Shown here piece by piece: positions 25-20,939 of a DNA stretch of 42,119 nucleotides. Numbering within the stretch: the stretch's first letter is position 1; each line of letters opens with the position of its first letter. The position numbers and the translations under genes were made by a program. Under the pieces are notes generated by a model that made no database searches, had not been told where the DNA came from, and worked only from the letters and a program-made list of their open reading frames with translations. Source of the DNA: Actinobacteria bacterium UBA7422 (GTDB lineage: Bacteria; Actinomycetota; Actinomycetes; S36-B12); assembly GCA_002469525.1 (NCBI GenBank), contig DKME01000129.1, positions 8,217-50,335 of the forward strand, read 5' to 3'.

Positions 25-2112
25 ATGTGGTCTGGACGTTTCCTGCGGAGGTTCCCTTCGCTACTAGTTGTGCTCGGTATCGGAATAGTCATTGTGCTGT
101 TTTGCCAGTCGATCATCCCTTTGCGCGTGGAACACCTCTTGGAAGAAGGGGAGTGGCATACCGAACCAATCGTGGCTTTGGCAGTACTGATCATTATTCA
201 ACTTGCTGTCAACTATTTGGTAATTTTACGAGCTGACAGGTTGGCTATCGCGACCGCGAGGAAAATTCGGGAGGAAATGTACGACTCGGCCCTTGTCGAA
301 AATAGTGATGAACTTTCGCGGACCGAAATTGCTATCCGGCATACCGGTGACGTTGACAACGTGCAGGTGGCGGTTGAAAAATCCTTGGCCGAAGGAATTC
401 CCGGGGTTCTTCGCATAATTTTAAGTTTGATCCTGCTGTCGTTTATTTCCCTCCCTGCGGGAATCGTCATGATTTTGGCCACCGCAGTTTTCCTCGCTCT
501 ACGATTTGTGATTTCCCGGCGTCTTTTCCAATTGGATCAGGTGCGCCTAACCGAATTAAGCATGGTGGCAACAAGTGTCGACGAGGCAATAATTTCAGCG
601 CGGCCACTCAACGGTCTTGAACTCATTAACTGGGCTAAGGACAGGTTTGATGCCCGTTTGATTGCCCTGTCGAACACTGCCCACCATGTGGGAGTGCTGG
701 CTGCTCGAATGCATACGGCTGCGCACACCGCTGGCCTACTGGGACTTTTTGTCGTAGTGGTCGTTGCGGTGGGACCTTCTGCAGAAAACGTTGGGGTCAT
801 TGCTGCCTCACTGTTGTATATCGAAGGGGTCGTTCGCGGACTTGAATCACTCCCAGGTTGGATTCGGTCGGTTCAGCTAGCGGGGGCCAGCATTGCCCGG
901 ATCCAACAAATCCTTGACTGGAAGGCAACAGACGCATTAATTGATGCAAATATGAAGTCGTTGACCCCGGAGACGATTCCTCCCGGTGTCACCGGTGTTG
1001 TGGTTCCCACTTCAATTGACGTTGAAATTGTGTTGGAAAGTATGGCTAGGACTCTGGGTGAGCACTCACTTTTTGTTCCTGCCAATCCATTGACACTTGA
1101 TGTCAGTGTTGAAGATTTGGCAGCAGGGTCCGGCTTGAAGTGCAGCGTCGAATCATTCCAGGAGATATGCGAAAAAGTTGGTTTGGACTTTGGAGACCCC
1201 CTGGACCAAGCTTCGATTTCAATAAAGACGAGTTTGTCAATGCTGACCGTCAACGATCGACAGAGGCTCGCTATCGCAATAGCGATCGGACAGGAACCAA
1301 AGGCGTTGCTGCTGGGCCCTTTGTTGGCGCTTTCAGACCCCGACTCGGACCTTCACTTGGGAGAACTGGCTGCACAGTTCAACATCCCTCGGGTCCTTTT
1401 CGCACTCAAGGTGAGTGAGCAGGTCCCTTGGACCGAATCGATAGTTTTCCACTCTCAGGCGGGCCCACTTATTGGTGAGCATCAAACCTTGCTGATCGAG
1501 CAACCTCAATATGCGGAAATCTGGGAAAGAAGGCTCAATGCGTCAGAAGTGGATCTGTCTGTGTTGGGCTTGGAAGGGGAGTCTGCCTTCGCACTACAAG
1601 CAAGGCTTGTAACGGAGAAGTACGAGGCCGGGGATTACATCTACCGCGGTGGCGAATTAGCAGATCGAATCGTGTTCCTGATCTCTGGCCGGATCGAAGT
1701 GAACGTTAACGACACAGATGGAGATGCACACCGCGTAGCCGTGATCGGACCTGGTGCCCATTGCGGCGATCTCCGGTTGACCGTAGGTGAGCGTCGCACT
1801 GAGAGCGCGATCGCGCTAGAAAACTGTGTTGTTCGCACTCTGAGCCGGGAAGCAATTGCGGTCGGGGTCACCGGACTCCTGGACCGATCCCCCGTAGAAC
1901 GGAAAATTGTGGCCGCGCTGTTGAGAAACGGACCTTCATCGGAAATTGAACTTATTCCGCTCCTTCCGGGTATTTCGCCCGAACAGATCAAGAAAGCCTT
2001 CGCTCTATTGCTCTCGGACGGAGCGATTGCCGAAGAAAATGGCAAATATCGTGTCCAGCAGAAACGCGCCATTAAGAGTGGAACGGAGTCGCTCTTTGAT
2101 CTCTTGGGTTAA
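25..2112 (+). CDS. ABC-exporter-type membrane protein with a degenerate (pseudo) nucleotide-binding domain, fused to a C-terminal cyclic-nucleotide-binding domain and a winged-helix-like tail
   Basis: 695-aa ORF. aa 1-300 look like a six-helix ABC_membrane domain. aa ~315-505 align to an ABC ATPase but every catalytic motif is degraded: Walker A region is GVTGVVVPTSID (no GxxGxGK[ST]), signature is LTVNDRQR (vs LSGGQRQR), Walker B is ALLLGPLLALSD (no D-E), H-loop is FALKV. aa ~520-615 carry cNMP-binding hallmarks (YIYRGGELADRIVFLISGRIEV ... GPGAHCGDLRL..GERRTESAIAL). The frame is open back to nt 1, so the true start could lie upstream of the window. Confidence 0.6.
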   Translation: MWSGRFLRRFPSLLVVLGIGIVIVLFCQSIIPLRVEHLLEEGEWHTEPIVALAVLIIIQLAVNYLVILRADRLAIATARKIREEMYDSALVENSDELSRTEIAIRHTGDVDNVQVAVEKSLAEGIPGVLRIILSLILLSFISLPAGIVMILATAVFLALRFVISRRLFQLDQVRLTELSMVATSVDEAIISARPLNGLELINWAKDRFDARLIALSNTAHHVGVLAARMHTAAHTAGLLGLFVVVVVAVGPSAENVGVIAASLLYIEGVVRGLESLPGWIRSVQLAGASIARIQQILDWKATDALIDANMKSLTPETIPPGVTGVVVPTSIDVEIVLESMARTLGEHSLFVPANPLTLDVSVEDLAAGSGLKCSVESFQEICEKVGLDFGDPLDQASISIKTSLSMLTVNDRQRLAIAIAIGQEPKALLLGPLLALSDPDSDLHLGELAAQFNIPRVLFALKVSEQVPWTESIVFHSQAGPLIGEHQTLLIEQPQYAEIWERRLNASEVDLSVLGLEGESAFALQARLVTEKYEAGDYIYRGGELADRIVFLISGRIEVNVNDTDGDAHRVAVIGPGAHCGDLRLTVGERRTESAIALENCVVRTLSREAIAVGVTGLLDRSPVERKIVAALLRNGPSSEIELIPLLPGISPEQIKKAFALLLSDGAIAEENGKYRVQQKRAIKSGTESLFDLLG

Positions 2113-2247
2113 TGGGCGCTTCGTGTGCCCGTGTAAACACGGTATTGCCTCTGTGCAGGGCAACATAAAATGCAGAGTAATGTTCCCAATCAATAGTTGT
2201 TCCCAGCCAATAGTGAAGTTTGCTAGCCAACATTCAAGGAGAAGCTC

Positions 2248-3012
2248 GTGACCAAGGTCGTTTCGATTCACTCATTTCGTGGTGGAACAGGTAAAAGCAA
2301 TACCAGTTCGAATATTTCGGCGCAATTAGCTGCTATGGGCAACCGGGTTGCAGTGGTTGACACCGACATCCAAAGCCCCGGAATCCACGTGCTCTTTGGT
2401 TTCGCGGACGATCTGGACAACACCCTCAATGACTATTTGTGGGGCAAAATCCCGATCAAAGACGCTGCACATGAGGTCACCGACCGAATTGCGCCCAATG
2501 TAACCGTCGCAGACGGTGGTGCGCTGTACCTGGTCCCTTCAAGTATGAAGTCCGGTGACATTGCCCGCGTGCTGCGTGAAGGCTACGACGTGGGAACCCT
2601 CAACGACGGTTTCCGTGATCTGGCAAAAGATCTTGATTTGGACTATTTGATTATTGACACTCACCCGGGTCTGAACGAGGAAACATTGTTGTCAATCACG
2701 ATCAGTGACGTTCTCCTTCTTCTGATGCGCCCAGATCGCCAAGACTTCCAAGGCACAGCGGTCACCGTTGATGTTGCGCGCAAACTCGGAGTCCCTGAGC
2801 TTTACTTGATCATCAATAAAGTTCCCTCCAATATTGACAAGGAAGACCTACGCGAGCAAATGAAACAGGTCTACGCAGCGGACGTCGCCGCCGTCCTTCC
2901 CCTCGCGGAAGAAGTAGTGCAAAACGCCTCGGAGGGCCTGTTCTCAATCACAAGCCCAGATCACCCATGGTCTGCCGAGATTCGCGCGGCAGTGGAAGTA
3001 ATTTCACAGTAG
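2248..3012 (+). CDS. MinD/ParA-family (SIMIBI class) P-loop ATPase
   Basis: 254-aa ORF with a GTG start 6 nt after AAGGAG (2236-2241). Deviant Walker A is SFRGGTGKSN. Switch region is VVDTDIQSPGIHV. Walker B is YLIIDTHPGL. Arg (codon 2278-2280) sits where MinD/ParA/NifH-type ATPases have the signature Lys. Confidence 0.75.
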   Translation: MTKVVSIHSFRGGTGKSNTSSNISAQLAAMGNRVAVVDTDIQSPGIHVLFGFADDLDNTLNDYLWGKIPIKDAAHEVTDRIAPNVTVADGGALYLVPSSMKSGDIARVLREGYDVGTLNDGFRDLAKDLDLDYLIIDTHPGLNEETLLSITISDVLLLLMRPDRQDFQGTAVTVDVARKLGVPELYLIINKVPSNIDKEDLREQMKQVYAADVAAVLPLAEEVVQNASEGLFSITSPDHPWSAEIRAAVEVISQ

Positions 3013-3052
3013 AGGAATATTGACATGGCCCAAGCCAAAGGAATCTGCGTTA

Positions 3053-3343
3053 ATGAGTAACAGTGAAGAGTTGCGATTCTACAACCGGATGGCAACGAGT
3101 CCACTTTTCTCAGAGGCCATAAGCGGTGCAACGAGCATTGAGTCGGCCATTGAAATTGCAGCAAATCACGGATTCGATGTCGATGAAAGTGCAATTCGAG
3201 TTGCAGCCGGAATCCAATTGACCGGATCGCGAGCGAATAATGCCAACGCTGACCCGAATCCTGAGCTATCGGAATCTGACCTTGAAGCAGTAAGTGGAGC
3301 AGGGGATTGGTGGAAGACTAACTGTGGCCCAATTAGCATGTAG
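3053..3343 (+). CDS. lanA: Nif11-like-leader lanthipeptide precursor (LanA); predicted core DWWKTNCGPISM or GDWWKTNCGPISM
   Basis: 96 aa counted from ATG 3053, with AAGGA at 3038-3042 (10-nt spacer). The N-terminus SEELRFYNRMATSPLFSEAISGATSIESAIEIAANHGFDVDESAI follows the Nif11 domain pattern. ELSESDLEAVSGAG matches the ELSDEELEGVAGG-type double-glycine leader end. The C-terminal 12-13 aa (3305-3340) hold one Thr, one Cys and one Ser. The gene sits directly upstream of a C39-ABC exporter and near a LanM. Confidence 0.7.
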   Translation: MSNSEELRFYNRMATSPLFSEAISGATSIESAIEIAANHGFDVDESAIRVAAGIQLTGSRANNANADPNPELSESDLEAVSGAGDWWKTNCGPISM

Positions 3344-3354
3344 TCCATCGGTTC

Positions 3355-3390
3355 GTATTCCCGCACTAAGTAGAATACCCGCACTATGTA
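3355..3390. repeat. Two tandem 18-nt direct repeats between the precursor gene and the exporter genes
   Basis: gtattcccgcactaagta (3355-3372) is followed directly by gaatacccgcactatgta (3373-3390); 15 of 18 positions are identical by my count. It lies in the 68-nt gap between lanA and the HlyD-like gene. Confidence 0.8.
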
Positions 3391-3411
3391 AGCGAGCAGA
3401 AAAGATCTCAC

Positions 3412-4236
3412 ATGGCTGACCAGAGTGAAGGAAACGGCAGACGTCAATCAGACGTGTTAAACGCGATCTTTGATGCCGTCGAGGAAAAACCGGAACAAGG
3501 GCCAAGAGCCGGATCAAATCTCTTTAGAGTTAAAGCGTTGGAACAAATTGATATTCCAACCCAATTGGACAACCTGCTCCCGATCACTTCCCGCAAATTG
3601 TGGATTTCACTCATCGCTGTCGTGCTGGTTCTAGCAGGTGGACTGGTTTACGCGGGAGGGGTTACTCAGATCTCTTCGGTTTCCGCCGCTGGGAGGGTTG
3701 TGCAGTCGGACGGGATCGCTGTCGCTGCGGCTCCAACTGACTTATTGCTCGCGCAAGTTCTCGTGAACGAAGGACAATTGGTCGCTGAAGGACAAGTTCT
3801 CGGTCAAGGGGTAATTCCCGGTGGTGACCAAGTGTCGATTGTGGCACCCGTCGACGGAACCGTGTGGCAAATCCTTGGAACATTGGGCCGCGTGAGCCCG
3901 GCGGGAGAAGCCGTCATGAGCATCTTGCCCGCTGGAAGTGAAAGCAATGTGCTGATTGCTCTGCCAGAGAGCGATGCAGCCGGGGTTGCTCTTGGTCAAG
4001 TAGTTGAGATTTCCAGTTCGGCGGGAACTCGGACTGGTGAGGTGTCCCACATTGATAGTGCGCCAATTCCCGCGGAAATCGCATCCGAGCGCACGGGATC
4101 GGAGTTTCCCGCGGAGACACCCATGATCATGATTGACGTCACTTTAGACGAACAACTCGATGCTGGATCCTCCGTTAACGCCGAGATTATTGAGTCCGAA
4201 CGCACGCTACTCAATCAGCTGGTGAATGTGGGGTGA
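3412..4236 (+). CDS. HlyD-family membrane-fusion/secretion adaptor (NHLM-type bacteriocin secretion protein), short form
   Basis: 274 aa. N-terminal FRVKALEQIDIPTQLDNLLPITSRKLWISLIAVVLVLAGGLVY (cytoplasmic tail plus one TM helix) is typical of bacteriocin HlyD proteins. It is followed by lipoyl-like half motifs (VNEGQLVAEGQVL ... IVAPVDGTVWQI) and a beta-barrel-like C-terminus. The stop overlaps the next gene's start (GTGA at 4233-4236). Confidence 0.65.
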   Translation: MADQSEGNGRRQSDVLNAIFDAVEEKPEQGPRAGSNLFRVKALEQIDIPTQLDNLLPITSRKLWISLIAVVLVLAGGLVYAGGVTQISSVSAAGRVVQSDGIAVAAAPTDLLLAQVLVNEGQLVAEGQVLGQGVIPGGDQVSIVAPVDGTVWQILGTLGRVSPAGEAVMSILPAGSESNVLIALPESDAAGVALGQVVEISSSAGTRTGEVSHIDSAPIPAEIASERTGSEFPAETPMIMIDVTLDEQLDAGSSVNAEIIESERTLLNQLVNVG

Positions 4237-6377
4237 GCGCTCCACGAAACCACCGGGTGAAAGTACCCACAATGCTCCAAATGGAGTCAACCGAGTGTGG
4301 TGCCGCAAGTTTAGGCATGGTGCTTGCTCACTACGGCCGATTTGAACGACTAGATGCTTTACGCGTTGCCTGTGGCGTCTCACGGGACGGAGCCACAGCC
4401 AAGAACGTTGTATCTGCAGCCCGCAGTTTTGGGCTACAGACTCGTGCGCTGAAGCGCGAACCAGAGGCCCTGAAGACTCTGACATTTCCTTTGGTCGTTC
4501 ACTGGAAGTTCTATCACTACCTGGTTGTCGAAGGCTGGTATCCCGGCGGTTGGTACGTAAATGATCCCGCTAAGGGAAGTGTCAAGATTTCCGCAGACGA
4601 ATTTGATAAGAGTTTCACCGGAATCGCTCTGGAACTGACGCCAGGTGAGGAGTTTGAAAAGTCTGGCGAACGCCCGGGTGTATTGGGCCGCCTGGTAGCA
4701 GCGTCAGGTCACATAGTGCCAGCGGTATTCGCCGCAGTAGTCATTGGACTATTGCTACTCATCCCTACACTTTTGATGCCACAAGTATTGACCTTGTACG
4801 GGAACAATCTCAACGGACTTGTGGGCATAACCGCGGTTTCAACTTTGATCGGACTGGTCCTTGCACTCGGTATTTCTTCAACGTTGCAGGCGCTGCAAGG
4901 TGCTCTCTCAATTCGGCTCTCGACAAAAATTAGCCTAAGGCTCACCGCTTCAATGGTACAGCGGCTCCTCCAACTTCCGGCTTCATTTCACGCGCAAAGG
5001 GGTGCGGCTGTAACCACTCAGAGAGCCTTGCTCATTGACGGAATGAGCGCTGGTGTCAGCGCCTTGACCCTGACCTTGGGAACGGCAGTGTTGACAAGTT
5101 TGGCTGCACTCACTGTTCTATTCCTGATCAACGTTCCCATTGGCGCAACAGCATTAGTGATTGGGCTTCTGACGTTGGTGCTCATTCGTGGAACGTTGAA
5201 TAAGGCAAAAGACGAAGCCGCAAAAGTTGTCGTAGAAACCGTGGAGGCTGGAGCGGTAATGGCTTCTTCCCTTTCCCAAATTGAGTCCATTAAGGCTGCG
5301 GGCTCAGAGGACGGGATGATCGCGCGTGGTGTTGCCGCGACTAACCGGCAATTGGAGGCTGAGCAAAAGGTAGCCATGCGCATGTTGGTCATAAGTTCAG
5401 TACCCACGTTCCTCATTGCACTGGCAAACATTGTGATCATGGGTCTGGCTGTATTTGAGATTTCCCAAGGTCGGCTAGAGCCGGGTGCACTCTTCGCGGT
5501 TATTGCTTTGACCGCAATGTTGGTGGGTCCACTCGCCCAAATCGTCAGCATGCTCGCACAGGTTCAACTCCTTCGCCCAGCGCTTGACCAAGTCGACGAC
5601 GTACTCGACTCCCCACTTGCATTGAGGCCGATTCCCACTGGGCTCGTGCCCGCCGACATTGTGGGCGATGTGCAATTGCGGAATATCAGTTTTGGTTACA
5701 GCTCCCTAGCACCGATGGTGATCAAGGGCCTTGACCTTCATCTACCAGTTGGAGGTCGGGTTGCGTTGGTGGGTCCCTCGGGCTGTGGAAAGTCCACGAT
5801 CTCCAAATTGGTCAGTGATTTATACCAACCGTGGTCAGGGGAAATCCTCATTGATTCCCTTCCACGCGAGGAACATTCTCAGGCGGTTCTCACTGACTCA
5901 ATTGCCCTCGTTGACCAAAACTTAACAATTTTTGCCGGCACAATTCGAGACAACGTCACGTTGTGGGACCCCGAAGTCACGGACGAATCCGTGATTCAAG
6001 CACTCGCCGACGCACAACTCTCACAAGACGTACTTGCTAGGCCGGGGGGACTTGAGGCGGTGCTCTCCGAGGGTGGGGCTGACCTTTCAGGTGGCCAACG
6101 TCAGAGACTTGAGATCGCTAGAGCCCTGGCTCGCAATCCGCGGATTTTGGTGCTCGACGAAGCAACAAGTGCATTAGATCCGCCAACGGAAACCCTCATT
6201 GATCAAGCTATTCGGCGCCGTGGAATCTCCGTCTTGGTAATCGCGCATCGCCTTTCCACAATTCGAGACAGTGACGAAATCGTTGTTCTGGAAGTTGGCG
6301 AAGTTGTTGAGCGAGGAACACATGAAGAACTCATGGCGGCAGAGGGCACGTATTTCGCTTTGGTGAATTCCGGATGA
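4233..6377 (+). CDS. lanT: Bacteriocin/lantibiotic ABC exporter with N-terminal C39 double-glycine leader peptidase domain (LanT / NHLM ABC1 type)
   Basis: 714 aa. C39 motifs are intact: Q16, catalytic Cys22 in STECGAASLGMVLAHYG (codon 4296-4298), His in KFYHYLVVEG and Asp in YVNDPAKG. There is a six-helix TMD. The NBD has GPSGCGKST, LSGGQRQRLEIARAL, ILVLDEATSALD and IAHRLST. Confidence 0.9.
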   Translation: MSAPRNHRVKVPTMLQMESTECGAASLGMVLAHYGRFERLDALRVACGVSRDGATAKNVVSAARSFGLQTRALKREPEALKTLTFPLVVHWKFYHYLVVEGWYPGGWYVNDPAKGSVKISADEFDKSFTGIALELTPGEEFEKSGERPGVLGRLVAASGHIVPAVFAAVVIGLLLLIPTLLMPQVLTLYGNNLNGLVGITAVSTLIGLVLALGISSTLQALQGALSIRLSTKISLRLTASMVQRLLQLPASFHAQRGAAVTTQRALLIDGMSAGVSALTLTLGTAVLTSLAALTVLFLINVPIGATALVIGLLTLVLIRGTLNKAKDEAAKVVVETVEAGAVMASSLSQIESIKAAGSEDGMIARGVAATNRQLEAEQKVAMRMLVISSVPTFLIALANIVIMGLAVFEISQGRLEPGALFAVIALTAMLVGPLAQIVSMLAQVQLLRPALDQVDDVLDSPLALRPIPTGLVPADIVGDVQLRNISFGYSSLAPMVIKGLDLHLPVGGRVALVGPSGCGKSTISKLVSDLYQPWSGEILIDSLPREEHSQAVLTDSIALVDQNLTIFAGTIRDNVTLWDPEVTDESVIQALADAQLSQDVLARPGGLEAVLSEGGADLSGGQRQRLEIARALARNPRILVLDEATSALDPPTETLIDQAIRRRGISVLVIAHRLSTIRDSDEIVVLEVGEVVERGTHEELMAAEGTYFALVNSG

Positions 6378-9214: not shown

Positions 9215-9250
9215 CGTGAACTCGCCTAATACTTGTCCGTGGCATGTTTA

Positions 9251-12200: not shown

Positions 12201-12382
12201 TTAATTCCATCCCAGGACAGTCGACGCTCAAAATTACCTAACCCGGCCGGATCAATCAGGGCGCGCCAACTATCGAGCACTGGCGTCAAGTCTGCCGAAA
12301 GGTCCAAGGGATCCAGAGGTGCCAGTTTTGGAGCTTCCGCCAGTCGTTCATCCCATGAGGGAAAAAAGGGGCTCGAGATCAC
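9251..12382 (-). CDS. lanM: Class II lanthipeptide synthetase LanM (dehydratase/kinase domain plus LanC-like cyclase), CCG-type
   Basis: 1043 aa, GTG start. The dehydratase catalytic region is GSDCHTENLIANGTDLFLIDAETIF (DCHTEN = 11327-11344, checked against the nucleotides). The C-terminal LanC-like motifs are GLAHGSSGIGIAL, GWCAGAPGIAL and SICCGNLG (CCG = 9509-9517, checked). It is convergent with exporter module 1 and divergent from module 2. Confidence 0.9.
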   Translation of the reverse strand: MISSPFFPSWDERLAEAPKLAPLDPLDLSADLTPVLDSWRALIDPAGLGNFERRLSWDGINFGHAVAMLAQNLDTAGSSPWVHKLTKIRSQLSERSIDFDHNVGEGAIPFYHVLAPLVEQTTREFFDSLNPLTTLIPTALMEQELVKVLISRLSHMTSRTLLAAAGARSYQQFCNDTLSDALESLLAEYPGIGRLLGIVTLQWEKNTRSLLERVHQDRDTLLNTFGIPLNAGLCGLTLALSDPHRGGQEVAVLFFCESHSTDSHPGWSVVYKPKDMRIEAEFNDFLGWIKSQLPGESLRQITIAAVGETHGYAEFIEHIPCESSGLPEFYENSGRLLGIIYMVNGSDCHTENLIANGTDLFLIDAETIFDSELSNFIETEPSVIDGLQDSVLRIGMLPNWRSIAVGAPLADWSALGIDSAIKATVKTRGWVKINSDAMHLDAHEIPARAPTSLPVSLGVANPLSNHLEEIISGFTQVYNLVLNPDIRVEIARRFQRFHGINRRIVMRNTSTYAILSSRALRPECMAQPLLRGIEIDRLSRSWLIATEQTAHWKIFHEELRAMENYDIPYFDFPLGSTSIRSDFGDIEGVISSEGIHAATLRLERFSPSELEWQARLIRGAFASRDSIHQAQQSSSAEIVEFTALTPTQIANQLTDLTLKDTAGNPTWLVLEAQGNADHFALQSISLNLYGGRAGLMAFFSSQRSDVQVTEAMVEVESLFTHSQDGAAFRAVRDNGLGINGIGGVARLYEYLETNSSLEPGKAAIFWDAFSELVTEQLVARDRSFDVISGVAGSAGALARRFTAFGEPVTRNAVELIAHHLIKNLTEDGNWIGQFSSRALNGLAHGSSGIGIALIEIGVALENTDFIDAGARAMSTESADFVASAGNWRDLREHNTKASEDKFMYGWCAGAPGIALTRMRALELVPDHNDGHMWRHDLALAAHTTASTGVVGLDSICCGNLGRALILSYLGDSTGQDQWNLASKELLEAIQSRAASLGGFRITAFGSPELQAPSLFKGLAGVGFALNQISGTKQDRIAARHLFI

Positions 12383-12416
12383 TGCTTTATTAAAGTGGAG
12401 AGCGAACAGGTGGGAA

Positions 12417-12456
12417 ACCGTGCAATCACGGTAAATAATTGGTCACAAAATTGGTC
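12417..12456. promoter_or_regulatory. Candidate operator elements in the lanM / exporter-2 divergent intergenic region
   Basis: Perfect inverted repeat ACCGTG-caat-CACGGT (12417-12432), followed by two copies of AATTGGTC spaced 12 nt apart (12437-12444 and 12449-12456). CACGGT recurs at 12490-12495. The region lies between the divergent starts at 12382 and 12508. Confidence 0.3.
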
Positions 12457-12507
12457 CTAAAAAAGTGACAACTGGCATTACTGTGCTAGCACGGTAGTGA
12501 TTCACGT

Positions 12508-13341
12508 TTGCGCAAGCAAAAATCGTGTGTGAGCGATTCAGGCCCCAGCACAAAGTTCGAGGTCGAGTCCCCGATAGCCCGCCTTGACCAGGTGGTAATT
12601 TTTGGCAAACCACGCCTCTGGGTAGGACTCTTAGGGGTTATTTCACTTATTCTCGCCGGGCTCGTGTGGGGTTTATTGTCCTCTCCGCCAGTAACGGTGG
12701 GTGCTCGAGGCGTCCTCTCCACTCAAGGCGGCCCACTTGAGATTGGAACTTCCCAGAGTGGAACCGTGACCGGGCTTAACGTGGTTCTGGGGGAGAGCGT
12801 TCAACGCTTTAACGTAATTGCCGTCGTTCAAGACGACCAAGGAAATTTTTCACCCATAACCACTTCGGTATCGGGAACCGTGATTGAGATCTCAACACAG
12901 GTGGGCGACTTTGTTAGAGAGGGCGAGAGCATCGCGATAATTCAGGATTCGCGCGAGCAATTGCAAGCTATCGCGTTAATCCCTGTCTCAACTGTGGGAA
13001 CAATAGAAGTGGGTCAGCCGGTGAATATCACCGCTGTTTCTGTTCCTGTGGGACAGTTCGGATACCTCCAGGGCACCGTGGCAACTATTTCAAGTATCCC
13101 GATGAGCCGTGCCCGAGTCAATCAATTGGTGGGCAGCGTCGCGGGATATCAAGACATTGACACATTGTCCGAGCCAATCGTTGAGGTGCGTGTGGATCTA
13201 ACGCAGGATCCAGAAACCGTCTCCGGATTTGCCTGGACAATTGGAGTTGGGCCCCCATTTGGCCTGCTGGCCGGTACTCCTTGGACCGGCGACATTATTA
13301 CCGGATTTCAAAGCCCGCTCACATCACTTTTCGGTTCCTAA
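12508..13341 (+). CDS. HlyD-family secretion adaptor, short form (paralogue of 3412-4236)
   Basis: 277 aa from TTG 12508 (alternative GTG at 12529). It has the same layout as the first HlyD-like protein: a short tail, one TM helix (LWVGLLGVISLILAGLVWGLL), lipoyl-like halves (VSGTVIEISTQVGDFVREGESIAIIQ) and a beta-barrel region. The stop overlaps the next start (TAATG at 13339-13343). Confidence 0.6.
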   Translation: MRKQKSCVSDSGPSTKFEVESPIARLDQVVIFGKPRLWVGLLGVISLILAGLVWGLLSSPPVTVGARGVLSTQGGPLEIGTSQSGTVTGLNVVLGESVQRFNVIAVVQDDQGNFSPITTSVSGTVIEISTQVGDFVREGESIAIIQDSREQLQAIALIPVSTVGTIEVGQPVNITAVSVPVGQFGYLQGTVATISSIPMSRARVNQLVGSVAGYQDIDTLSEPIVEVRVDLTQDPETVSGFAWTIGVGPPFGLLAGTPWTGDIITGFQSPLTSLFGS

Positions 13342-15668
13342 TGCGTGTCTCCTTAGCCCAGGCACCCACAGATGGTGGATTGTCATGTCTGCGCATGGCT
13401 TTTGCGGAACAACGCGTGCACGTGGGAACCGAAGACTTGCGAAACGTCAGTGGGGTCGGGCGAGACGCACCCGATCAGGACACATTGATTCGTACGGCAG
13501 AATTTTTTGGATTTTCAACCAAGGTAATCGACATTTCGCAACTAATCGAGTCCGGCGTCGCAGAGGGGTCCGAGTCAGTAAGTATGCCGCTTGTGGCGCA
13601 ATGGGGAACTGCTGATCGTCGCTATTTTGTTTTAGTCACGCGAGTGGGTCCCAAGTCGATCGAAATCATTGATCCGTTTGTAGGCCGCCGGTCCTTGGAT
13701 TTTTCCGAGGCGAGGGAATTCCTCCGAGGCGAGGGTTTTCGTGTAAGAGCGGAAGCGAATGAACCGCAACGAAATTCCGAAAGTCCGGAGAGCATCTCGC
13801 GGTACTTCGTTTCTAGTCGCAATGGAACATTGTTCTTAGTTCTTGCAGGACTGGGCCTGATCGTCCCGGGAGTGATTGCTCCAGGTTTTGTTCGAGTTTT
13901 CGTCGACGACTACTTGGCTCGGGGTGACCGGGATAGTCAGTTTGCGGTACTTGGAGGGCTCACCGCCATGCTGATTCTCACCGTCACCTTGAGTGCATTT
14001 CAACTGATTGCATTAAGAAGGCTTAACACCATTGCGGTTTCGCACATGGGTTCCCGCCTGATGTGGCATTTGTTGCGAATGCCCGCGTGGTTTCTCACAG
14101 CGAGGGATGCAACCAGTCTTGGGTACCGGGTCCAAATCACCCAGCAAATCGCAGGTGTCTTATCCGGTGAGCTCGCCGTTGCCCTGATGGCTGTCTTCAC
14201 GAGTGTGTTCTTTCTCCTCGTAATGTTCATTCTTTCTCCGATCCTGGCCCTTGTCTCCTTCTTTGGTTTCATGACCGTGGTCCTATTGATTCTTCGTGTT
14301 GCTTCAGAGCGCACCCAAGTGCGCCAACGTCAGGCCAGGGAGAAGGAAGTTGGCGCGAATCTGATTGGAACTAGCATTAGAGTTTTAGACACTTTAAAAG
14401 CAACAGGCAATGAAAATATTGCGTTTGACCGCTCCTATTCTTCATTGGGAAGGTTGCTTTCTTTGGGCAACACGCACCTCTGGGCATGGATGGGAATGAT
14501 TCCGATCGCGGTCACTCTCTTCACCACAGTCTTCGTCTTGACCGTAGGTGCGCTGCTAGTGATTATTGGATCAATAACGCAAGGAACCCTTGCGGCTTTT
14601 TTCCTCTTGCTGGCTGGGTTTTTGGCGCCGTTAGTAATCCTTGTTCCAAGCATTGACTCGTTCCTGAGCCTTCGAGGTGCGCTGGAGCAGCTTGACGATA
14701 TTTTGCTGCAAAAAGTAGATCCCGCATTGAGTGATCCATATGTTGATGGTGAAAGTGAAGCGGATCTAGAAGTAGACGTGTTTGACGCTTTAGCGGCGAA
14801 ACCCGGCGTGAGTGAAGGTGATAGCGCCGAAGTTAAAGAGGGCGAAGATGAAGAGGACGCTGAGGTTGACTATTTGTCTCTCCTTGTTGCCAAAGGAGGT
14901 CGTAAGCGCGGATTGAAATCAGGTGGCGGAACGGGCTTAGTGGTTGATCCGTGGGCTGCATCTTTGGAATTAACGAACATCACGTTCGGATACAGTCGAA
15001 TTCTTCCACCGTTGCTGAGCGGCATTGATTTGAAAATCAGTCCAGGACGGGTAGTTGCTTTGGTTGGCGCCAGCGGTTCAGGTAAGTCAACGATCGGTCG
15101 GTTAGTAGCGAGCATGTATCAACCTTGGGAGGGCTCAATCGCTTTGGATGGGAAAGCATTGAGCACGATCTCCCAAGAAACCAAAGCGCACGAAATCAAT
15201 TTTGTTAATCAAGATGTCGTTATTTTCCAAGCTTCTATTCGGGAGAACATCTCGATGTTTAACCCGGATATTCCAGACCGTGACATAGTTAAAGCTGCAA
15301 AGAAGGCACTCCTGCATGACGACATAGTCGCGCGCCCGGGAGGTTATGAATCAATTTTGCAAGAAGATGGCAAGGACCTTTCCGGGGGACAACGACAGAG
15401 ATTAGGAATTGCGCGAGCACTGGTTCGCAACCCACGTTTACTCGTATTAGACGAGGCTACGAGTTCCTTAGACTCACGCACCGAGATGGAAATTGTGAAG
15501 AACCTTCGGGCTCAAGGTTGCACGTCGTTGGTCATTGCGCATCGGCTCTCCACCGTCAGGGACGCTGACGAAATAATTGTGATGGACCAAGGAAAAATTG
15601 TGGAGCGCGGAACGCACAACAGCCTTGCAGCCAATGACGGTCCGTATCGAAAGTTAATGGACTCATGA
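13341..15668 (+). CDS. ABC exporter with degenerate C39-like N-terminal domain (paralogue of the LanT-type subunit)
   Basis: 775 aa from ATG 13341. The ORF-track TTG at 13281 would add 20 atypical residues and overlap the upstream gene. The N-terminus [24 protein letters not shown] aligns to QMESTECGAASLGMVLAHYG with Gly at the catalytic Cys position (13374-13379), and [11 protein letters not shown] has Tyr where His is expected. The NBD is intact ([43 protein letters not shown]). [13 protein letters not shown] and [10 protein letters not shown] parallel LYQPWSGEILIDS and [10 protein letters not shown] of 4233-6377. Confidence 0.8.
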   Translation: [775 protein letters not shown]

Positions 15669-17875
15669 ACCAATCGCCACTAACCCAGCAGAATCAAGAC
15701 CACGAAAGCTCTGCTCGTGCGCGCAAAAAAAATCAGAGCGATCAAGCCGCAGCAACAATGGGTCGTCTGTTAAATCCAGCATTGCCCCTCCCTTCGGCCA
15801 TGCTGGGTGGCGGACGAGTTGGCGAGATTGTTGCGATTTTGGCTCGAGAGATGAATTTTACGCAAAACCCTGTGCAGGTTGATTCGTCTTTGAGCGATCT
15901 TGATCAAGTGGATCGAGCATTGGCGGCGTCAGGTGTTCGAACCCGCAGGGTCACCCTGTCTCAAGATTGGATAGAACTGACAACAATGAACATGGTGGTC
16001 CACACTTCAGGTGGGTTGACTTCAGGTGGATTGGCCGTCGTCGTTCCAGGTTCGCTGCGTAGGCCTCGAATAATTGAGGTTAATGCTGACCCTCGAGATG
16101 TCGATTCAGAGCTGGCCCGGGAAATTTCATTCACTGCCTTGGAAGTGATCCAACCCTTAAAACCCGGAACTCCTCGAAACTGGGATTTGATCAAATTGTC
16201 CGTTTCTGGGATGCGCGGCGATTTGACCTACGCCATTCTGGCTTCCGTAGCCGTCGGGCTCATAAGTCTGGCAATTCCCATTGCCACAAGCCTAATTTTT
16301 TCGAACGTTGTCCCCGAAGGAGACACCGCGCGACTTGGAATAGTTTTCGTCGTCCTCCTCCTCCTCGCCAGCGCCTCCGCGTTTTTCGTGTACCTGCGGA
16401 CTTACCAACTCATTCGCATCTATGACGGAATCGACATGAACATGTTTGGTTCGATCCTAGATCGCATATTGAGACTACCCATGAGTGGGCTGCGAGATTG
16501 GTCGAGTGCGCGCATTGCGTCCAAGGTGAGTTTAAGTGTGCAATTGCAATCAGCAATCGCGCAGGCAATCGGTGTGGGTCTATTCGCTGCACTCCTTGTT
16601 GTACTTAACGGAGTACTCATGCTCGTCTTGATCCCAAGCCTCGGTGCTATCGCGATTTTGCTCGGTGGCGCATTGCTGGGGGCCACCTGGTACCTAATTT
16701 CTCGTGAGAAACAACAAGTGCATGCGGAGCGAATCGCCAGCGACAACTTGGAAGAAGTCACACTGGATTTAGTGCGAGGCTGGGTGCCTATTCGGCTCTC
16801 TGACGGGGAAACCTCGGGCTTTGGTCGTTGGGTGTCAAGTTTTGCCCAGCATAGAAGTGCATATGACGCGCGTTGGCGCTACGAGATGCGCACTGACATT
16901 CTGCGCATCGCCTTTATCGCGATCATGTCCCTCGCATTTGTGTGGACGGCGTACCTGCTGCCGCTTGGAACGATTTCTTCCGCGAGCTTCCTCGCCTTTC
17001 TGTCCGCGTTCACGCAATTTTCATTTGGGATCGCAGGCGTCACGGTTACGATCAGGGCATTCACTCACGCCCTCGTTGATACCGAAAGGGTAAAAGAAAT
17101 TCTGTCGATTCCAGTTGAAGATTCAACGGCCAGGGAATCTCCTGGGATGCTTACTGGCGCCATTGAATTGCGGGGGGTTTCATTTCGTTATGCCGACGAT
17201 TTTCCAAAAGTGTTGAACGATGTTAATTTCACCGTCGGGCCCGGAGATTTTATTGCGATCGTAGGTAGCTCTGGTTCTGGCAAATCCACGTTGCTTCGGC
17301 TGATGCTGGGCTTTGAAGCGGCAACACAAGGTTTAGTGGCCTATGACGACACTGATCTTTCCATGATGGATCTAAACGCTGTGCGACGCCAATTCGGGGT
17401 GGTTTTGCAGTCAAGTTTACTTCTTCCGGGAACGATCCGAGAAAATATCTCTGTCACAACGGGAAGTGTCAGCGACGCTCAACTTTGGCAAGTACTCGAA
17501 CAGGTTGATCTGTACTCATTCGTTGAGGGGCTCCCACTCGGGTTAGACACCGTGATTGACGAAGGCGCGCACGTGCTTTCTGGTGGACAGCGTCAGCGCA
17601 TGCTCCTTGCACGAGCATTGGCTCACGCACCTGCTGTTCTTTTCCTTGACGAGGCAACGAGTGCTCTAGACAACATCAGCCAGAAGGCAGTCTCCGACCG
17701 AATTGAAAATCTGGGAATAACACGAATCGTGATCGCTCACAGGCTCTCTACAATTGAGGCTGCTGACAAGATCATCGTTCTGGATAAAGGTTCGGTTGTT
17801 CAGACCGGTACCTATTCCGAATTAGTGAATCAGCCGGGATTTTTTTCCCAGCTCGTGGCTAGACAGGAGCTGTAA
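15665..17875 (+). CDS. ABC exporter permease/ATPase with ~180-aa Cys-free N-terminal extension (paralogue of 6374-9214)
   Basis: 736 aa; ATGA overlap at 15665-15668. The NBD is intact ([43 protein letters not shown]). [15 protein letters not shown] parallels LQSSKLLPGTIFANI of 6374-9214. The N-terminal region ([24 protein letters not shown]) resembles a C39-like fold, but I saw no Cys in its first ~180 aa. Confidence 0.8.
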   Translation: [736 protein letters not shown]

Positions 17876-18771
17876 TGCGCTCAACCAAGTGGATCTCCAA
17901 GATAGCCATTGGTCTTTTTTTGGGCACCCTCACACTAAGCGGCTGCAGCAGCACAGATCCGTCCACGGTCAGCGAGGGCTCGAATAGTGGGTCGATTGAT
18001 AGCACGGCAATAGATGAGACACGTCCCTCGCGCCCGCTTACGGTTGCCTATTGGAATGCTGCTCCAGGAGCGTATCTCAATAGTGAAGGCGAATTGGTGG
18101 GCTGGGAAATCGAGTTAATCCAACGGGTATCCCGTGAGCTCGAGACCGAAGTTGAGTTCATCCAGATGGATTTCGCAGACATCTTGCCAGCGGTGATTTC
18201 AGGGGAAGTAGATCTTGGGGTCGGTAGTATTTTTTCCACTCCTGAGCGACAAGTGTATGTCGATTTTGTCAATTATGGACAAGGCGGGGTCTCGTGGGCC
18301 ACCCTGACCGATCGCGTGGAAAGTCCGTTTGACCCATGCGGGTGGAGGGTCGCCGGTGAAATAGACACGACGAATGTAAATGTTTCACTTCCGAATGCCT
18401 CAATTGATTGCAGGGCTGCTGGGAAGGAACCCATCACGATTGTGCCGGTCCAAGATTTGCCTGTTGCGGTGAATTTGTTGCAAAGAGAAGAGATAGACGC
18501 CTTTATCGGAGACAGTCCGACCGTTACGTACATTATTCAAGAGTCAGGTGGGCGAATTGCCCAAACAGGGGTCACGCAAGAGGTTCAGTCCTATGGAATC
18601 GCTGTCAATAAAGACGATCGAGAGTTATCAGAGTCTTTCGTTGACGCACTGACAAGTTGGTCAGCGAGCGGGGACTACAACCGCCTGTTAGGCAAGTGGG
18701 CTGTATCCGATAGTGAGGTTAGTTTTTTCACGATTAATCAATTGAATCCAAATGATGCAGAATCACAATAA
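17875..18771 (+). CDS. Family-3 solute-binding protein (amino-acid-type SBP), lipoprotein
   Basis: 298 aa; the ATG overlaps the upstream stop (TAATG at 17873-17877). Lipobox is LTLSGC with Cys24. SBP_bac_3-like core: LTVAYWNAAPGAYLNSEGELVGWEIELIQRVSRELETEVEFIQMDFADILPAVISGEVDLGVGSIFSTPERQVYVDFVNY. Confidence 0.8.
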   Translation: MRSTKWISKIAIGLFLGTLTLSGCSSTDPSTVSEGSNSGSIDSTAIDETRPSRPLTVAYWNAAPGAYLNSEGELVGWEIELIQRVSRELETEVEFIQMDFADILPAVISGEVDLGVGSIFSTPERQVYVDFVNYGQGGVSWATLTDRVESPFDPCGWRVAGEIDTTNVNVSLPNASIDCRAAGKEPITIVPVQDLPVAVNLLQREEIDAFIGDSPTVTYIIQESGGRIAQTGVTQEVQSYGIAVNKDDRELSESFVDALTSWSASGDYNRLLGKWAVSDSEVSFFTINQLNPNDAESQ

Positions 18772-20176
18772 GAAGACCTCGCGTTGGTCGACGCTGACAT
18801 ACCGATTAGCGCTGTTGATCGCCGCATTGCTGGGAATTTCCGCAATCTTAACCACGACATTTGCAGTGAAGACTGTTCAGGATTCCCTCTATGAAGAAGT
18901 AACGCAATCCATGCTCAATGTCCATAATTCTGTTGCTACCACGGTGGCACTCGAGTATGAGGCCGTACAGGCTTACCGTGAAGCAACGCTGCAAAGTCGC
19001 AGGGCTTCACTTGAAAGCATTTCGGCACCCATTGTGTCCTCATTGGATCAACTCGTGCTCCTTGCTGACCGCGGCGAATTGACTCAGGAGCAAGCGCAGT
19101 CATCAGGACTTGATCTCGTTCGTGATGTGAGATTCGGTAACGATGACTACTTTTTTGTGTACAACCGAGATCTGGTAGCAATTGGTCATCCAGATCCTCA
19201 ATTTCAGGGACAGTTTCTCGGAGACATGCAAGATCCAAATGGTCAATTTGTAGTGCGCGACTTGGCCGAAATTGCATTTGATCAAGGTTCAGGTTTCTAT
19301 AGTTACGAATGGGTAAGGCTTGGCCAGGGTGAACCTTCTCCGAAAATTGCCTATGTCTTTCACTACAAACCATGGGACTGGATGATTGGCACCGGTGTTT
19401 ACGTTGATGACATAGATCAGGCAGCCTCGGATCGACTTGAGGTTGTCAAAAGCCAATTGGGCGAATCACTGTACGACATTCGTTTTTCTGAAGGCAGCGT
19501 ATTTTTCGTTCTTGATAGCAGTGGTGAGATTGTGGTGGCACCGAGTGATCAATTTGGTGGCAGTCCAATTGAGAGTACAGATGAAGTACAGAGAATCGGC
19601 ACTTCCATCATCGCTTCCGCACCCACAACTGCTGGAGTGGTGAGTGAGCAGGTGGTGTCGGCTACGTTGCGTGACGGTGTCGCCGAGGAGTGGGTCACCA
19701 ATGTATCTGCTTTTCCCAACCTCGGCTGGTACCTCCTCTCCGCAGTGCCCGCTTCCGAATTGAGCAAAACGGGCCAGAGGATTGCAATAGAGCAAGCGAT
19801 TATGGGTGTAGTGGTCTTGATCCTAGGAATTGGTGCCGGACTGCTACTGAGTCGACGTATTATCCGTCCGGTGCAGAGTGTGACGAATGCGGCTCGGGAA
19901 CTCTCCGAGGATCGATTTGATCCAGATACTCTCAATCAAGCTGCCGAACGAAAAGACGAGGTCGGTGAATTGGCTCGTGTTTTCCAGCGGATGGGTAAGG
20001 AGCTGATCGAGCGAGAACGCAAGTTACGTGAGCAAGTGGCAAAGCTCAAAGTACAAATTGACCGCAGCAAACTAGCCGAAGACATTGAAGAGATTACTGA
20101 GACCGATTACTTCAAACGAATCAAAGCGCAAGCTGATGAGATGCGAAAGAACAAACCGAGCAAGGAAACAGAATGA
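18752..20176 (+). CDS. Membrane sensor with periplasmic/extracellular Cache-like domain and cytoplasmic HAMP domain, no recognisable output domain
   Basis: 474 aa; overlaps the SBP gene by 20 nt. TM1 is LALLIAALLGISAILTTTFAV. A ~300-aa extracytoplasmic region carries a Cache-type motif (DDYFFVYNRDLVAIGHPDPQFQGQ ... YSYEWVR ... KIAYVFHYKPWDWMIGTGVYVDD). TM2 is AIMGVVVLILGIGAGLLLS. HAMP is RRIIRPVQSVTNAARELSE...DEVGELARVFQRMGKEL. It ends in a ~55-aa charged coiled-coil tail. Confidence 0.7.
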   Translation: MMQNHNKKTSRWSTLTYRLALLIAALLGISAILTTTFAVKTVQDSLYEEVTQSMLNVHNSVATTVALEYEAVQAYREATLQSRRASLESISAPIVSSLDQLVLLADRGELTQEQAQSSGLDLVRDVRFGNDDYFFVYNRDLVAIGHPDPQFQGQFLGDMQDPNGQFVVRDLAEIAFDQGSGFYSYEWVRLGQGEPSPKIAYVFHYKPWDWMIGTGVYVDDIDQAASDRLEVVKSQLGESLYDIRFSEGSVFFVLDSSGEIVVAPSDQFGGSPIESTDEVQRIGTSIIASAPTTAGVVSEQVVSATLRDGVAEEWVTNVSAFPNLGWYLLSAVPASELSKTGQRIAIEQAIMGVVVLILGIGAGLLLSRRIIRPVQSVTNAARELSEDRFDPDTLNQAAERKDEVGELARVFQRMGKELIERERKLREQVAKLKVQIDRSKLAEDIEEITETDYFKRIKAQADEMRKNKPSKETE

Positions 20177-20183
20177 GGTTCAT

Positions 20184-20939
20184 GTGAAAAGCACCAAGGC
20201 AACTGTCAAGATTATTGCAGCATTTGTGGGTCTTGCGTTTGTCGCCACAATTTCAGTTGGTCCTGTGTCGGTCCAAGCAGACACTTCACGGGCGGGCGCT
20301 CCTTTTGTGCAGCAAATTGGCACCTATGACTATCTCGCAGGGCCGAACTATCAAGGCTTACTCCCTATTAAGGAAATCTCAGAATCTGCCGATATTGGTT
20401 TAGGAACATTTAATAACCTCGATGGCGAAATGGTCGTACTTGATGGAACCGTCTACCGGGTGGGAACCGATGGGGTACCAAAGAAAGTTTCGACCAAGCG
20501 GCTTACCCCCTTTATGCAGGTCGTGGACTTTGATCCCAAGGCATCTATGCGAGTGGCCCCAAACACAGCATGCAGTGCCTTGCCGGAGATTGTTGACACG
20601 CTCGTTAAGTCAACCCAAGGAATTGTGTCGGTCAAGCTCAGCGGGGTCTTCTACGACCTCGAACTGCGAAGTGTTCCGGCCCAGCTAGTTCCATTCCCTT
20701 CCCTCATGGACGCGGTCGGTAGCCAAGTGAAATTCCCGCTGGGAAGAATTAACGCCACGCTCGTTGGTTTCCGGCAAGGGCCCGATGCGAAAGGGCTAGG
20801 TGCACCAGGGCTGCACCTGCACGGTCTTTCCAAGTCGAAAGCTTCTGGCGGCCACGTGCTTTCCTGTGTCACCGGTCCTCGAGTCCTCCTGGAAGTCCAA
20901 CAAACTAGCGGTGCCTCGGTCCACATGCCCCACGATTAA
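20184..20939 (+). CDS. Alpha-acetolactate decarboxylase family protein with predicted N-terminal signal peptide
   Basis: 251 aa from GTG 20184, with GAGG at 20175-20178; the start is 8 nt after the upstream stop. A signal-like N-terminus (KSTKATVKIIAAFVGLAFVATISVGPVSVQA/D) precedes ALDC motifs IGLGTFNNLDGEMVVLDGTVYRV and the His cluster LHLHG...GGHVL. The ORF-track start at 20085 lies inside the upstream gene. Confidence 0.7.
   Translation: MKSTKATVKIIAAFVGLAFVATISVGPVSVQADTSRAGAPFVQQIGTYDYLAGPNYQGLLPIKEISESADIGLGTFNNLDGEMVVLDGTVYRVGTDGVPKKVSTKRLTPFMQVVDFDPKASMRVAPNTACSALPEIVDTLVKSTQGIVSVKLSGVFYDLELRSVPAQLVPFPSLMDAVGSQVKFPLGRINATLVGFRQGPDAKGLGAPGLHLHGLSKSKASGGHVLSCVTGPRVLLEVQQTSGASVHMPHD

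Follow-up and report, generated by a model that had tools for sequence, protein, structure and literature searches.

A Nif11-type lanthipeptide cassette and a protease-less exporter with candidate sensor proteins at one palindrome-marked locus of a marine actinobacterium

Why should a locus with a single short peptide precursor carry two three-gene exporters? The question is raised by 42,119 nt of contig DKME01000129.1 (positions 8,217–50,335; this whole stretch is hereafter referred to as the window) from Actinobacteria bacterium UBA7422 (GCA_002469525.1), in which a Nif11-leader precursor and a class II lanthipeptide synthetase, LanM, lie among genes for ABC-type exporters. A preliminary description had proposed a duplicated exporter with a division of labour between its copies. 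We distinguish here a unit A (the lanthipeptide cassette with exporter module 1), a unit B (the operon of exporter module 2) and a unit C (a pseudo-transporter, g1, and a MinD-like ATPase, g2). We consider it somewhat probable that these units form a composite, co-regulated locus for peptide production, export and sensing, that is, one regulon that produces, exports and probably also senses a small peptide. The host, an uncultured marine actinobacterium, is of the Nanopelagicales type: matches of 90% identity or more to window proteins carry the NCBI names “Candidatus Nanopelagicales bacterium” or “Actinomycetes bacterium” and come from metagenome-assembled genomes (MAGs), and the locus recurs on many contigs of marine metagenomes, SOLA and Tara among them, with its proteins in dozens to more than 100 index blocks of an assembly collection.

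Domain calls were obtained by Pfam and NCBIfam profile searches of the window proteins, with curated cut-offs where quoted, and the related loci or contigs compared with the window bear labels such as L007, L011 and L013. All the open reading frames (ORFs) of the preliminary description are present, at the coordinates that it gave, in the ORF list. The gene overlaps that it reported (GTGA at 4233, ATGA at 6374, TAATG at 13339–13343 and ATGA at 15665) are in the sequence, the peptide motifs that it quoted are all found in the translations, and its assignments to the Nif11, LanM (DUF4135 and LANC_like), C39 and cNMP (cyclic-nucleotide-binding) families were borne out by the profile searches.

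Two exporters of different descent

Module 1 comprises HlyD1 (3412–4236, plus strand), a short adaptor of the membrane-fusion type (HlyD_3, 274 aa), ABC1a (4233–6377, plus strand; gene callers place its start at 4272), which combines an active C39 peptidase with a membrane domain and an ATPase (PCAT type), and a second exporter subunit of 946 aa, ABC2a (6374–9214, plus strand). Module 2 consists of HlyD2 (12508–13341, plus strand), again a short HlyD_3 adaptor, ABC1b (13341–15668, plus strand) and its partner subunit ABC2b (15665–17875, plus strand). Walker A, the signature motif, the Walker B glutamate and the H-loop are complete in ABC1a, ABC2a, ABC1b and ABC2b. The shared motifs for which the subunits had been called paralogous are present, but the word “duplicated” is misleading: identity between ABC1a and ABC1b is 50% over the ATPase domain and 23% over the rest of the protein, and it amounts to 32% for the ABC2a/ABC2b pair and 23% for the two HlyD proteins (E 1e-4). 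The modules belong to different, old clades, and subunit identities of 23–50% rule out a recent duplication of the exporter.

The earlier claim that only one exporter has an active leader peptidase held. ABC1a matches Peptidase_C39 with 113.9 bits, and its peptidase domain aligns with LahT150 (6MPZ) with an E value of 5e-44, the catalytic Cys, His and Asp being kept; its Q...ECG, YHY and NDP segments align with both LahT150 and ComA, giving the full set of Cys, His, oxyanion Gln and Asp that defines PCAT (AMS) peptidases. The C39-like domain of ABC1b is weak (35.9 bits in Pfam) and has Gly at the position of the catalytic Cys, Ala at that of the oxyanion Gln and Tyr at that of the His, so that these three PCAT residues are missing; a phmmer search of this N-terminal domain against PDB sequences found no C39 structure.

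A search with the N-terminal 520 residues of ABC1b recovered a distinct clade at 43–64% identity, the canonical NHLP exporters being about 28% identical, and the two named members of this clade are labelled as Actinomycetota MAGs. The catalytic Cys is replaced in all 38 of the 38 clade clusters (by G, M, L, V, T, S or A), as is the oxyanion Gln (38/38; Ala in all but three, which have Ser or Thr), whereas some 30 more distant NHLP exporter subunits of the ABC1 type keep Q...ECG. Loss of the catalytic residues is therefore old, and the dead C39-like domain has been maintained since. Judged by these sequence comparisons, module 2 is the older exporter and, among the relatives found, is confined to Actinomycetota. 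The clade, with its at least 38 clusters, raises the question of how, or whether, leaders are removed.

The module 2 operon runs on by overlaps into two genes that were absent from the preliminary description. The first (17875–18771, plus strand) encodes an SBP_3 lipoprotein with the lipobox LSGC and is translationally coupled to ABC2b by a TAATG overlap; the second (18752–20176, plus strand) overlaps the SBP_3 gene and encodes a membrane sensor that combines dCache_2 with HAMP and lacks an output domain. Among NCBIfam models, the SBP_3 protein best matches the extracellular sensor domain of StpK7, an actinobacterial kinase. An SBP_3 gene directly follows the ABC pair of module 2 in all eight lineages with downstream sequence (the window, L038, L032, L013, L034, L035, L044 and L045), and a dCache-HAMP gene is adjacent in six of these eight.

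Other neighbours of module 2 vary. No LanM, precursor or module 1 accompanies it in L013, L034, L035 and L045. L013 has flanks syntenic with the window and contains, of the locus, only module 2, SBP_3, g1 and dCache. In L035 and L045, module 2 adjoins a conserved set including MinD-like, HAMP, 242-aa and MFS-like genes, to which L035 adds g1 and the dCache-HAMP gene, placing unit B beside a full unit C set. In three further loci (L042, L043 and L044) a module 2 of the HlyD2 type is immediately preceded by a Nif11-like precursor, with a response regulator and a histidine kinase beside it. The leader of this precursor ends in ELGDISGG and is followed by a core of about six residues, approximately GGTSPW (TIGR03798 E 2e-6, below the cut-off); no peptidase-bearing ABC gene or LanM gene occurs in up to 9 kb of sequence at these loci. 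In L043, a gene for a PrsW-family intramembrane metalloprotease (4297–5400) has a perfect copy of the palindrome described below 60 bp upstream. Its product is a candidate for leader processing in this lineage, the exporter of which is without an active C39 domain. Finally, L041 carries both modules in tandem, about 50% identical to those of the window, together with a Nif11-like precursor, an NHLP-like precursor and a 278-aa gene at the place of the window's LanM. The NHLP-like precursor is a 94-aa ORF (L041 7249–7533, minus strand; NHLP leader model E 2.5e-7, below the cut-off), which ends in LELVMGG followed by LADGGDPKKSKC and lies between the two exporter modules, at the position of the window's LanM.

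These neighbourhoods bear on the earlier proposal that module 1 matures and exports the peptide while module 2 confers producer immunity or re-exports it. An active peptidase is indeed found only in module 1, both modules stand beside LanM and share an operator motif with it (see below), and the module pair is kept in three lineages with 66–95% identity. However, the modules are of different clades, relatives of module 2 occur without any lanthipeptide genes, and immunity makes little sense in L042–L044, where module 2 follows a precursor of the unmodified type with a very short core. Nor does any of the transporters have the LanFEG architecture known for immunity, with a separate ATPase and ABC-2-type permeases: each of the four functional ABC proteins is a fusion of a PF00664 membrane domain with an ATPase, and g1 has PF00664 with a dead ATPase. 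With its clade-wide dead C39 domain and its fixed SBP_3 partner, retained where LanM, precursor and module 1 are missing, module 2 is not a lanthipeptide accessory, and we consider the immunity or re-export explanation improbable. What survives of the division of labour is that the two modules probably belong to one system; module 2 is the older core, is conserved more widely and has its own partner proteins outside the cell, and it is not a derived copy.

A C39-like domain without the catalytic Cys, as in ABC1b, is a hallmark of RTX exporters (PMC10986499). Module 2 could thus secrete a larger protein encoded elsewhere, in the manner of a type I secretion system, its dead domain serving as a substrate chaperone as in HlyB and SBP_3 and dCache being unrelated sensors. 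The four lineages without a nearby precursor are compatible with this explanation, as is L035, in which a large HemolysinCabind (RTX-type) protein (L035 1–2324) is encoded about 7 kb from the module 2-type operon, a proximity that may be due to chance. No HemolysinCabind or similar RTX-type gene was found in the window or in the other related loci, the best family match of ABC1b is the NHLP peptide exporter and not HlyB (575 versus 313 bits), translational coupling joins SBP_3 to ABC2b in every lineage, and a Nif11-like precursor adjoins the module in L042–L044. We therefore give this explanation little credence. Unit B most likely still recognises Nif11-type leaders, which it would be unable to cut.

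A palindrome ahead of the transcription units

Are the two modules, then, parts of one system or chance neighbours? Comparison of intergenic regions between lineages revealed a palindrome, ACCGTG-N4-CACGGT. One copy in the window, CCCGTGTAAACACGGT (2128–2143; 11 of 12 positions), lies about 105 bp upstream of the MinD-like gene and has a counterpart in the same position in both L011 and L018, the latter a Nanopelagicales MAG locus. Two more, ACCGTGCAATCACGGT (12417–12432; perfect) and ACTGTGCTAGCACGGT (12480–12495; one mismatch), are located in the divergent LanM/HlyD2 intergenic region, where L032 and L038 also have two sites. The window contains two occurrences of the exact core motif, at 2128 and at 12417 (0.09 expected; no shuffle reached 2), and no palindrome was found in the intergenic DNA of its right half.

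On longer contigs the locus continues to the left of the window with a LuxR/NarL-type response regulator (hereafter RR) and a histidine kinase (hereafter HK), at L007 6995–9877. Copies of the palindrome at L007 7009 and 9916 stand about 75–90 bp ahead of the likely RR start and ahead of g1, respectively. HK (L007 7793–9877) resembles a histidine kinase and is polytopic, its 694 aa including two membrane-helix blocks that are separate from each other; it gives a faint HATPase_c match (E 0.008) and hardly any other family matches, and is remote from the described sensor kinase families. The L011/L032 lineage has eight sites, ahead of RR, g1, MinD, the precursor, HlyD1 and LanM/HlyD2, plus the HK–g1 spacer, with a further four sites in L041, five in L043 and one, ahead of HlyD2, in L039. 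Four Nanopelagicales MAG loci (L018 and L025 among those in which sites were seen) have one site just upstream of the MinD-like gene. In all, about 20 perfect sites (12/12) were counted in 445 kb of related loci, against about 0.03 estimated by chance, nearly all of them intergenic and ahead of RR, g1, MinD, the precursor, HlyD1, LanM or HlyD2.

We read the palindrome as a putative common operator of the transcription units of the locus. Its 6-4-6 geometry is shared by the canonical box of ComA, a regulator from the family to which RR belongs (PMC4797271), and RR probably binds the palindrome. Given the shared operator and the recurrence of both modules in L041, the two modules probably act in one system. 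Searches for other signals did not help to define operons: promoter-like sites were at chance level (13 found, 12.1 expected), and the terminator-like sites (32 versus 22.2 expected, sd 3.8) lay nearly all within coding sequence. Rfam at the gathering threshold gave no match in window positions 1–21000.

Unit C has its own history. The product of g1 (25–2112, plus strand) contains an ABC_membrane domain, a dead ATPase domain, a cNMP_binding domain (PF00027, 59.6 bits) and a predicted C-terminal winged helix. As had been described, its ATPase is dead, without Walker A, signature motif, Walker B glutamate or H-loop. The membrane and dead-ATPase part belongs to a small Actinomycetota family (32 representatives at E≤1e-10 among 1.84 billion), and g1 homologues about 40% identical are found in MAGs of Nanopelagicales and other Actinomycetota. 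Foldseek matched the model of the C-terminal 196 residues to full-length CRP, GlxR and NtcA; g1 is fused to a membrane domain, hence not soluble, unlike the soluble dimers of the CRP/FNR regulators. On this model, which is of low confidence, it is predicted to be a membrane-anchored CRP-like protein with a dead ATPase. The neighbouring g2 (2248–3012, plus strand) encodes a MinD/ParA-like ATPase, with the P-loop RGGTGKS in place of the deviant Walker A motif KGGxxGK[ST] that marks MinD/ParA proteins and with scores below the family cut-offs (TIGR01969, 88.7 versus 201.75; NF047398, 72.4 versus 90). Between lineages it keeps 75–87% identity where that of g1 falls to about 40%.

The set recurs in L018, L025, L027, L028, L035 and L045, from Nanopelagicales and other Actinomycetota MAGs; its members are g1, the MinD-like ATPase, an MFS-like protein of about 480 aa, a HAMP protein of about 350 aa, a 231–242-aa protein without family match and the dCache-HAMP sensor, a homologue of which lies beside g1 in many Nanopelagicales loci. 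Most g1/MinD loci have no LanM or peptide exporter within 10 kb, the exceptions being L018 and L022. Unit C is a separate conserved actinobacterial gene set, and the suggestion that the cNMP and MinD-like proteins are a regulatory layer of the lanthipeptide system was not supported. In L018, an IS3-type transposase gene (rve, HTH_21; 18496–19284) lies between the g1/MinD set and a LanM homologue (35% identity), which hints that LanM genes reach this set via mobile DNA.

Independence of this kind could mean that the lanthipeptide cassette has simply been inserted beside an unrelated, conserved exporter and sensor cluster, with no functional link. L013 speaks for this, having only module 2, SBP_3, g1 and dCache at the same site between syntenic flanks; the general lack of LanM and peptide exporters around g1/MinD sets and the transposase of L018 point the same way. 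Mere adjacency would not account for the occurrence of one palindrome ahead of LanM/HlyD2, the MinD–precursor unit, g1 and RR, for the return of both modules together in L041 at about 50% identity, or for the Nif11-like precursor directly ahead of module 2 in L042–L044. A tRNA scan of the window found no tRNA gene, and there is no composition shift at the cassette borders in the window, so that no island boundary is evident. Chance adjacency is accordingly a rather unlikely explanation.

The predicted peptide and its possible role as a signal

Unit A is a standard NHLM/Nif11 class II lanthipeptide cassette of a known kind, and the one precursor and one LanM that had been described were both confirmed. 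The precursor gene (3053–3343, plus strand) starts 40 bp downstream of g2 and is the only Nif11-type ORF in the 42-kb window, a count that applies to the window and not to the whole genome. Its leader (3053–3301, ending in ELSESDLEAVSGA) scores above the cut-offs of PF07862 (27.2 bits versus 23.8) and TIGR03798 (36.1 versus 32.3), and the predicted core, GDWWKTNCGPISM, is encoded by 3302–3340. The leader end fits the published N11P/NHLP logo position by position (positions 1–13; PMC2887384), and cleavage is therefore expected after Gly-Ala, releasing GDWWKTNCGPISM. The allelic cores are IDCGPISM (L047) and IMEDCGPISI (L011); the three have in common only xCGPIS[MI], and that of L011 has a single Cys and a single Ser, so that the product should be small, with one lanthionine ring. 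From its sequence, it is most likely a single-ring peptide of about 13 residues with the conserved core C-G-P-I-S.

LanM (9251–12382, minus strand) is a class II synthetase by PF13575 (283 bits), PF05147 (122 bits) and TIGR03897 (581.8 versus a cut-off of 304). Its zinc motif (SICCGNLG at residue 956, with WCAG at 906 and AHGSSG at 844) places it in the ProcM-like CCG subgroup, as distinguished from the CHG subgroup in the actinopeptin study, which concerns different, CHG-type clusters (PMC13509491). Nif11-type precursors adjoining LanM and a three-gene cassette of HlyD-like protein, ABC protein with peptidase and ABC protein without peptidase were reported by Haft et al. in 2010 (PMC2887384), and module 1 has this order beside the precursor. 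The best-scoring families are TIGR03794, TIGR03796 and TIGR03797 for five of the six export proteins of the two modules, HlyD1 scoring best on TIGR01843; HlyD1 and HlyD2 are short and match just both ends of the HlyD models. Among the papers searched, none mentioned both Nanopelagicales and lanthipeptide. Between the precursor and HlyD1, a tandem direct repeat of the 13-mer CCCGCACTAWGTA was observed (window 3360–3372 and 3378–3390; CCCGCACTA[A/T]GTA, 18 bp apart), which is real and has no counterpart at this position in L011. The fold of this spacer gave a z-score of 0.16, and thus no attenuator hairpin.

ABC2a has some 270 extra residues, the first 105 of which are predicted to adopt a CAP/CRP effector-like fold (pLDDT about 75–93 over residues 1–100). 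The top 50 Foldseek hits of this model were all CRP/CLP/FNR-type proteins with the cyclic-nucleotide-binding fold; Pfam gave no match to the N-terminal extension, which is identified by the fold model alone. The domain is predicted to correspond to the “long type” exporter architecture. A degenerate C39 domain at this position was also considered and is not supported (hhalign probability 0.5%, E 0.13).

If these parts work together, LanM would dehydrate core Ser12, and perhaps Thr6, and close a single lanthionine ring between Cys8 and Dha12 (dehydroalanine) within C-G-P-I-S. ABC1a and ABC2a with HlyD1 would cut the leader after Gly-Ala and export the peptide of about 13 residues, and the CAP-like N-terminal domain of ABC2a could gate cleavage or export. 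The extracellular SBP_3 and dCache proteins of unit B would be the binding and sensing parts, and the palindrome-marked transcription units would be under the control of the LuxR-type RR, in a layout like that of a Gram-positive peptide-pheromone circuit with autoregulation, and less like that of a duplicated antibiotic pump. That the layout (peptide, exporter, kinase, regulator) resembles such a circuit follows from the shared palindrome together with RR. The genes of a ComABCDE-type system are all present, namely a leader peptide, a C39-bearing ABC protein with an accessory protein, and adjacent HK and RR, and the palindrome ahead of operons including the regulator's own may be taken as indirect evidence on self-induction by the peptide.

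Rates of divergence are consistent with a signal, among other things. Identities between the window and its closest lineage (L047/L038), and between the window and a farther one (L011/L032), were 100 and 86%, respectively, for RR, 99 and 67% for both dCache and HlyD2, 98 and 95% for the MinD-like protein, 92–96 and 66–85% for the ABC proteins, 95 and 62% for HK, 90 and 45% for SBP_3, 82 and 52% for LanM, and 74 and 50% for the precursor. Divergence between lineages is fastest in the precursor, LanM, SBP_3 and HK, a pattern that would fit either co-diversification of signal and receptor or an arms race; the fast divergence of SBP_3 lends weak support to a sensing role for this protein.

A more far-reaching reading, which we put forward tentatively and as a whole, is that of an unrecognised peptide signalling system in aquatic Actinomycetota, including those of the Nanopelagicales type. 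A Nif11-leader peptide with a core of 5–13 residues, lanthionine-bridged in the window, would be exported by the protease-less heteromeric ABC transporter, and the SBP_3 lipoprotein and dCache-HAMP sensor, co-transcribed with that transporter, would recognise the peptide extracellularly; feedback would run via the LuxR-type two-component system or the membrane-anchored, CRP-like g1, and would act on the ACCGTG-N4-CACGGT regulon. The conjunction of these four points is possible rather than probable. If it is true, the co-divergence of peptide, LanM, SBP_3 and kinase would represent pherotypes.

Several observations weigh against the composite, co-regulated locus and, with it, against signalling. 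A single-ring peptide could be an antimicrobial. Neither precursor nor palindrome was detected with unit B in L013, L034, L035 and L045, so that unit B is tied to Nif11 peptides by a single lineage in addition to the window lineages. The L041 contig ends inside ABC1b, and a LanM gene may lie beyond its end. All the NHLM family scores of the export proteins are under the NCBIfam curated equivalog cut-offs (ABC1a 733 and ABC1b 575 versus 853; ABC2a 522 and ABC2b 548 versus 709; HlyD1 29 and HlyD2 125 versus 156). The palindrome could be an RNA hairpin instead of an operator, and its presence ahead of the MinD-like gene in some MAG loci with no RR nearby would favour g1 or an unlinked regulator as the binder. 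The C-terminal model of g1 has low overall confidence (mean pLDDT 51.6; 72–87 in the winged helix).

The composition of the locus had been thought to be undescribed. Its cassette is that of Haft et al. (PMC2887384) and exporters with cNMP domains are also known (PMC4558948, PMC10986499). The features that appear to be new are the protease-less exporter clade, which has a fixed SBP_3 partner and is associated with Nif11-leader peptides of very small size, the pseudo-transporter predicted to be CRP-like, and the putative operator tying these parts to a ProcM-like LanM in marine actinobacteria. If the composite locus is real, a known biosynthesis module for ribosomally synthesised and post-translationally modified peptides has been recruited into a conserved export-and-sensing system of a widely recovered uncultured marine actinobacterium. 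We know of no cell–cell communication in this host group; the operator motif, candidate regulators, peptide sequences and putative receptor defined here provide a handle on it in marine actinobacteria. The value of the locus for antibiotic discovery is limited, the predicted product being tiny and single-ringed.

The surroundings of the locus provided further observations. Genes for alpha-acetolactate-decarboxylase-like proteins flank it at window 20184–20939 and at L007 3223–3939, to the left of the window. The two products are about 30% identical (left copy of L011 versus window g13), the window copy has a hydrophobic, signal-peptide-like N-terminus, and in the window, as in L013 and L032, the right-hand copy comes after dCache. 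Window positions 28018–34686 encode a rhodanese–metallo-beta-lactamase fusion, a DsrE-like protein, a fused 4Fe-4S/NrfD protein and a 970-aa molybdopterin oxidoreductase, followed by histidine-utilisation genes (35350–39928). These metabolic genes of the right half (28018–39928) appear to be unrelated to the lanthipeptide and exporter locus.

Comparison with known systems

The locus is closest to the Nif11/NHLP clusters of Nostoc PCC 7120 and the prochlorosin type (Haft et al. 2010, PMC2887384), with which it shares a Nif11 leader with a Gly-Gly-type site, a ProcM-like C-C-G LanM, and HlyD, C39-ABC and second ABC genes beside the precursor. It differs from them in its actinobacterial rather than cyanobacterial host, in the single precursor of the window, with a very short, single-Cys core, as against many diverse precursors, in the short HlyD proteins and the export proteins that fall under curated cut-offs, and in the second, protease-less exporter attached to it. 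LahT, the PCAT (AMS) of a lanthipeptide cluster of Lachnospiraceae (6MPZ), resembles ABC1a in its peptidase (E 5e-44), with conserved Cys and His, and its substrates carry a double-Gly leader that is removed by the C39 domain. LahT, however, acts as a single gene product; in the window, the peptidase subunit ABC1a has an adaptor and another, dissimilar ABC subunit as partners.

Cyanobacterial “long type” bacteriocin exporters carry an N-terminal CAP_ED domain (PMC4558948), and the cyclic-nucleotide-type domain of HetC from Nostoc PCC 7120 binds ppGpp in vitro and is required in vivo (PMC10986499). A peptide exporter with a domain of this kind is also predicted here, in residues 1–105 of ABC2a; in this case, it is located on the peptidase-less subunit and is too diverged for Pfam, and a second cNMP domain is found on a separate pseudo-transporter, g1, incapable of ATP hydrolysis. 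With the HlyB-type RTX transporters, ABC1b and its whole clade have in common a C39-like domain without the catalytic Cys. Unlike these transporters, module 2 has no nearby RTX substrate, a pair of different ABC subunits, a short adaptor and a best match to NHLP exporters, and its operon always includes the SBP_3 lipoprotein.

Finally, with respect to the Gram-positive pheromone circuits (ComABCDE, ComQXPA and NisRK of nisin), the SBP_3, dCache-HAMP, cNMP and MinD-like parts are without counterpart there, and the kinase is here a 694-aa polytopic protein with almost no family matches. The likeness in gene content extends to a Gly-Gly-leader peptide, a C39-ABC protein with an accessory protein, adjacent HK and RR, and a 6-4-6 palindrome like the ComA box ahead of operons that include the regulator's own.

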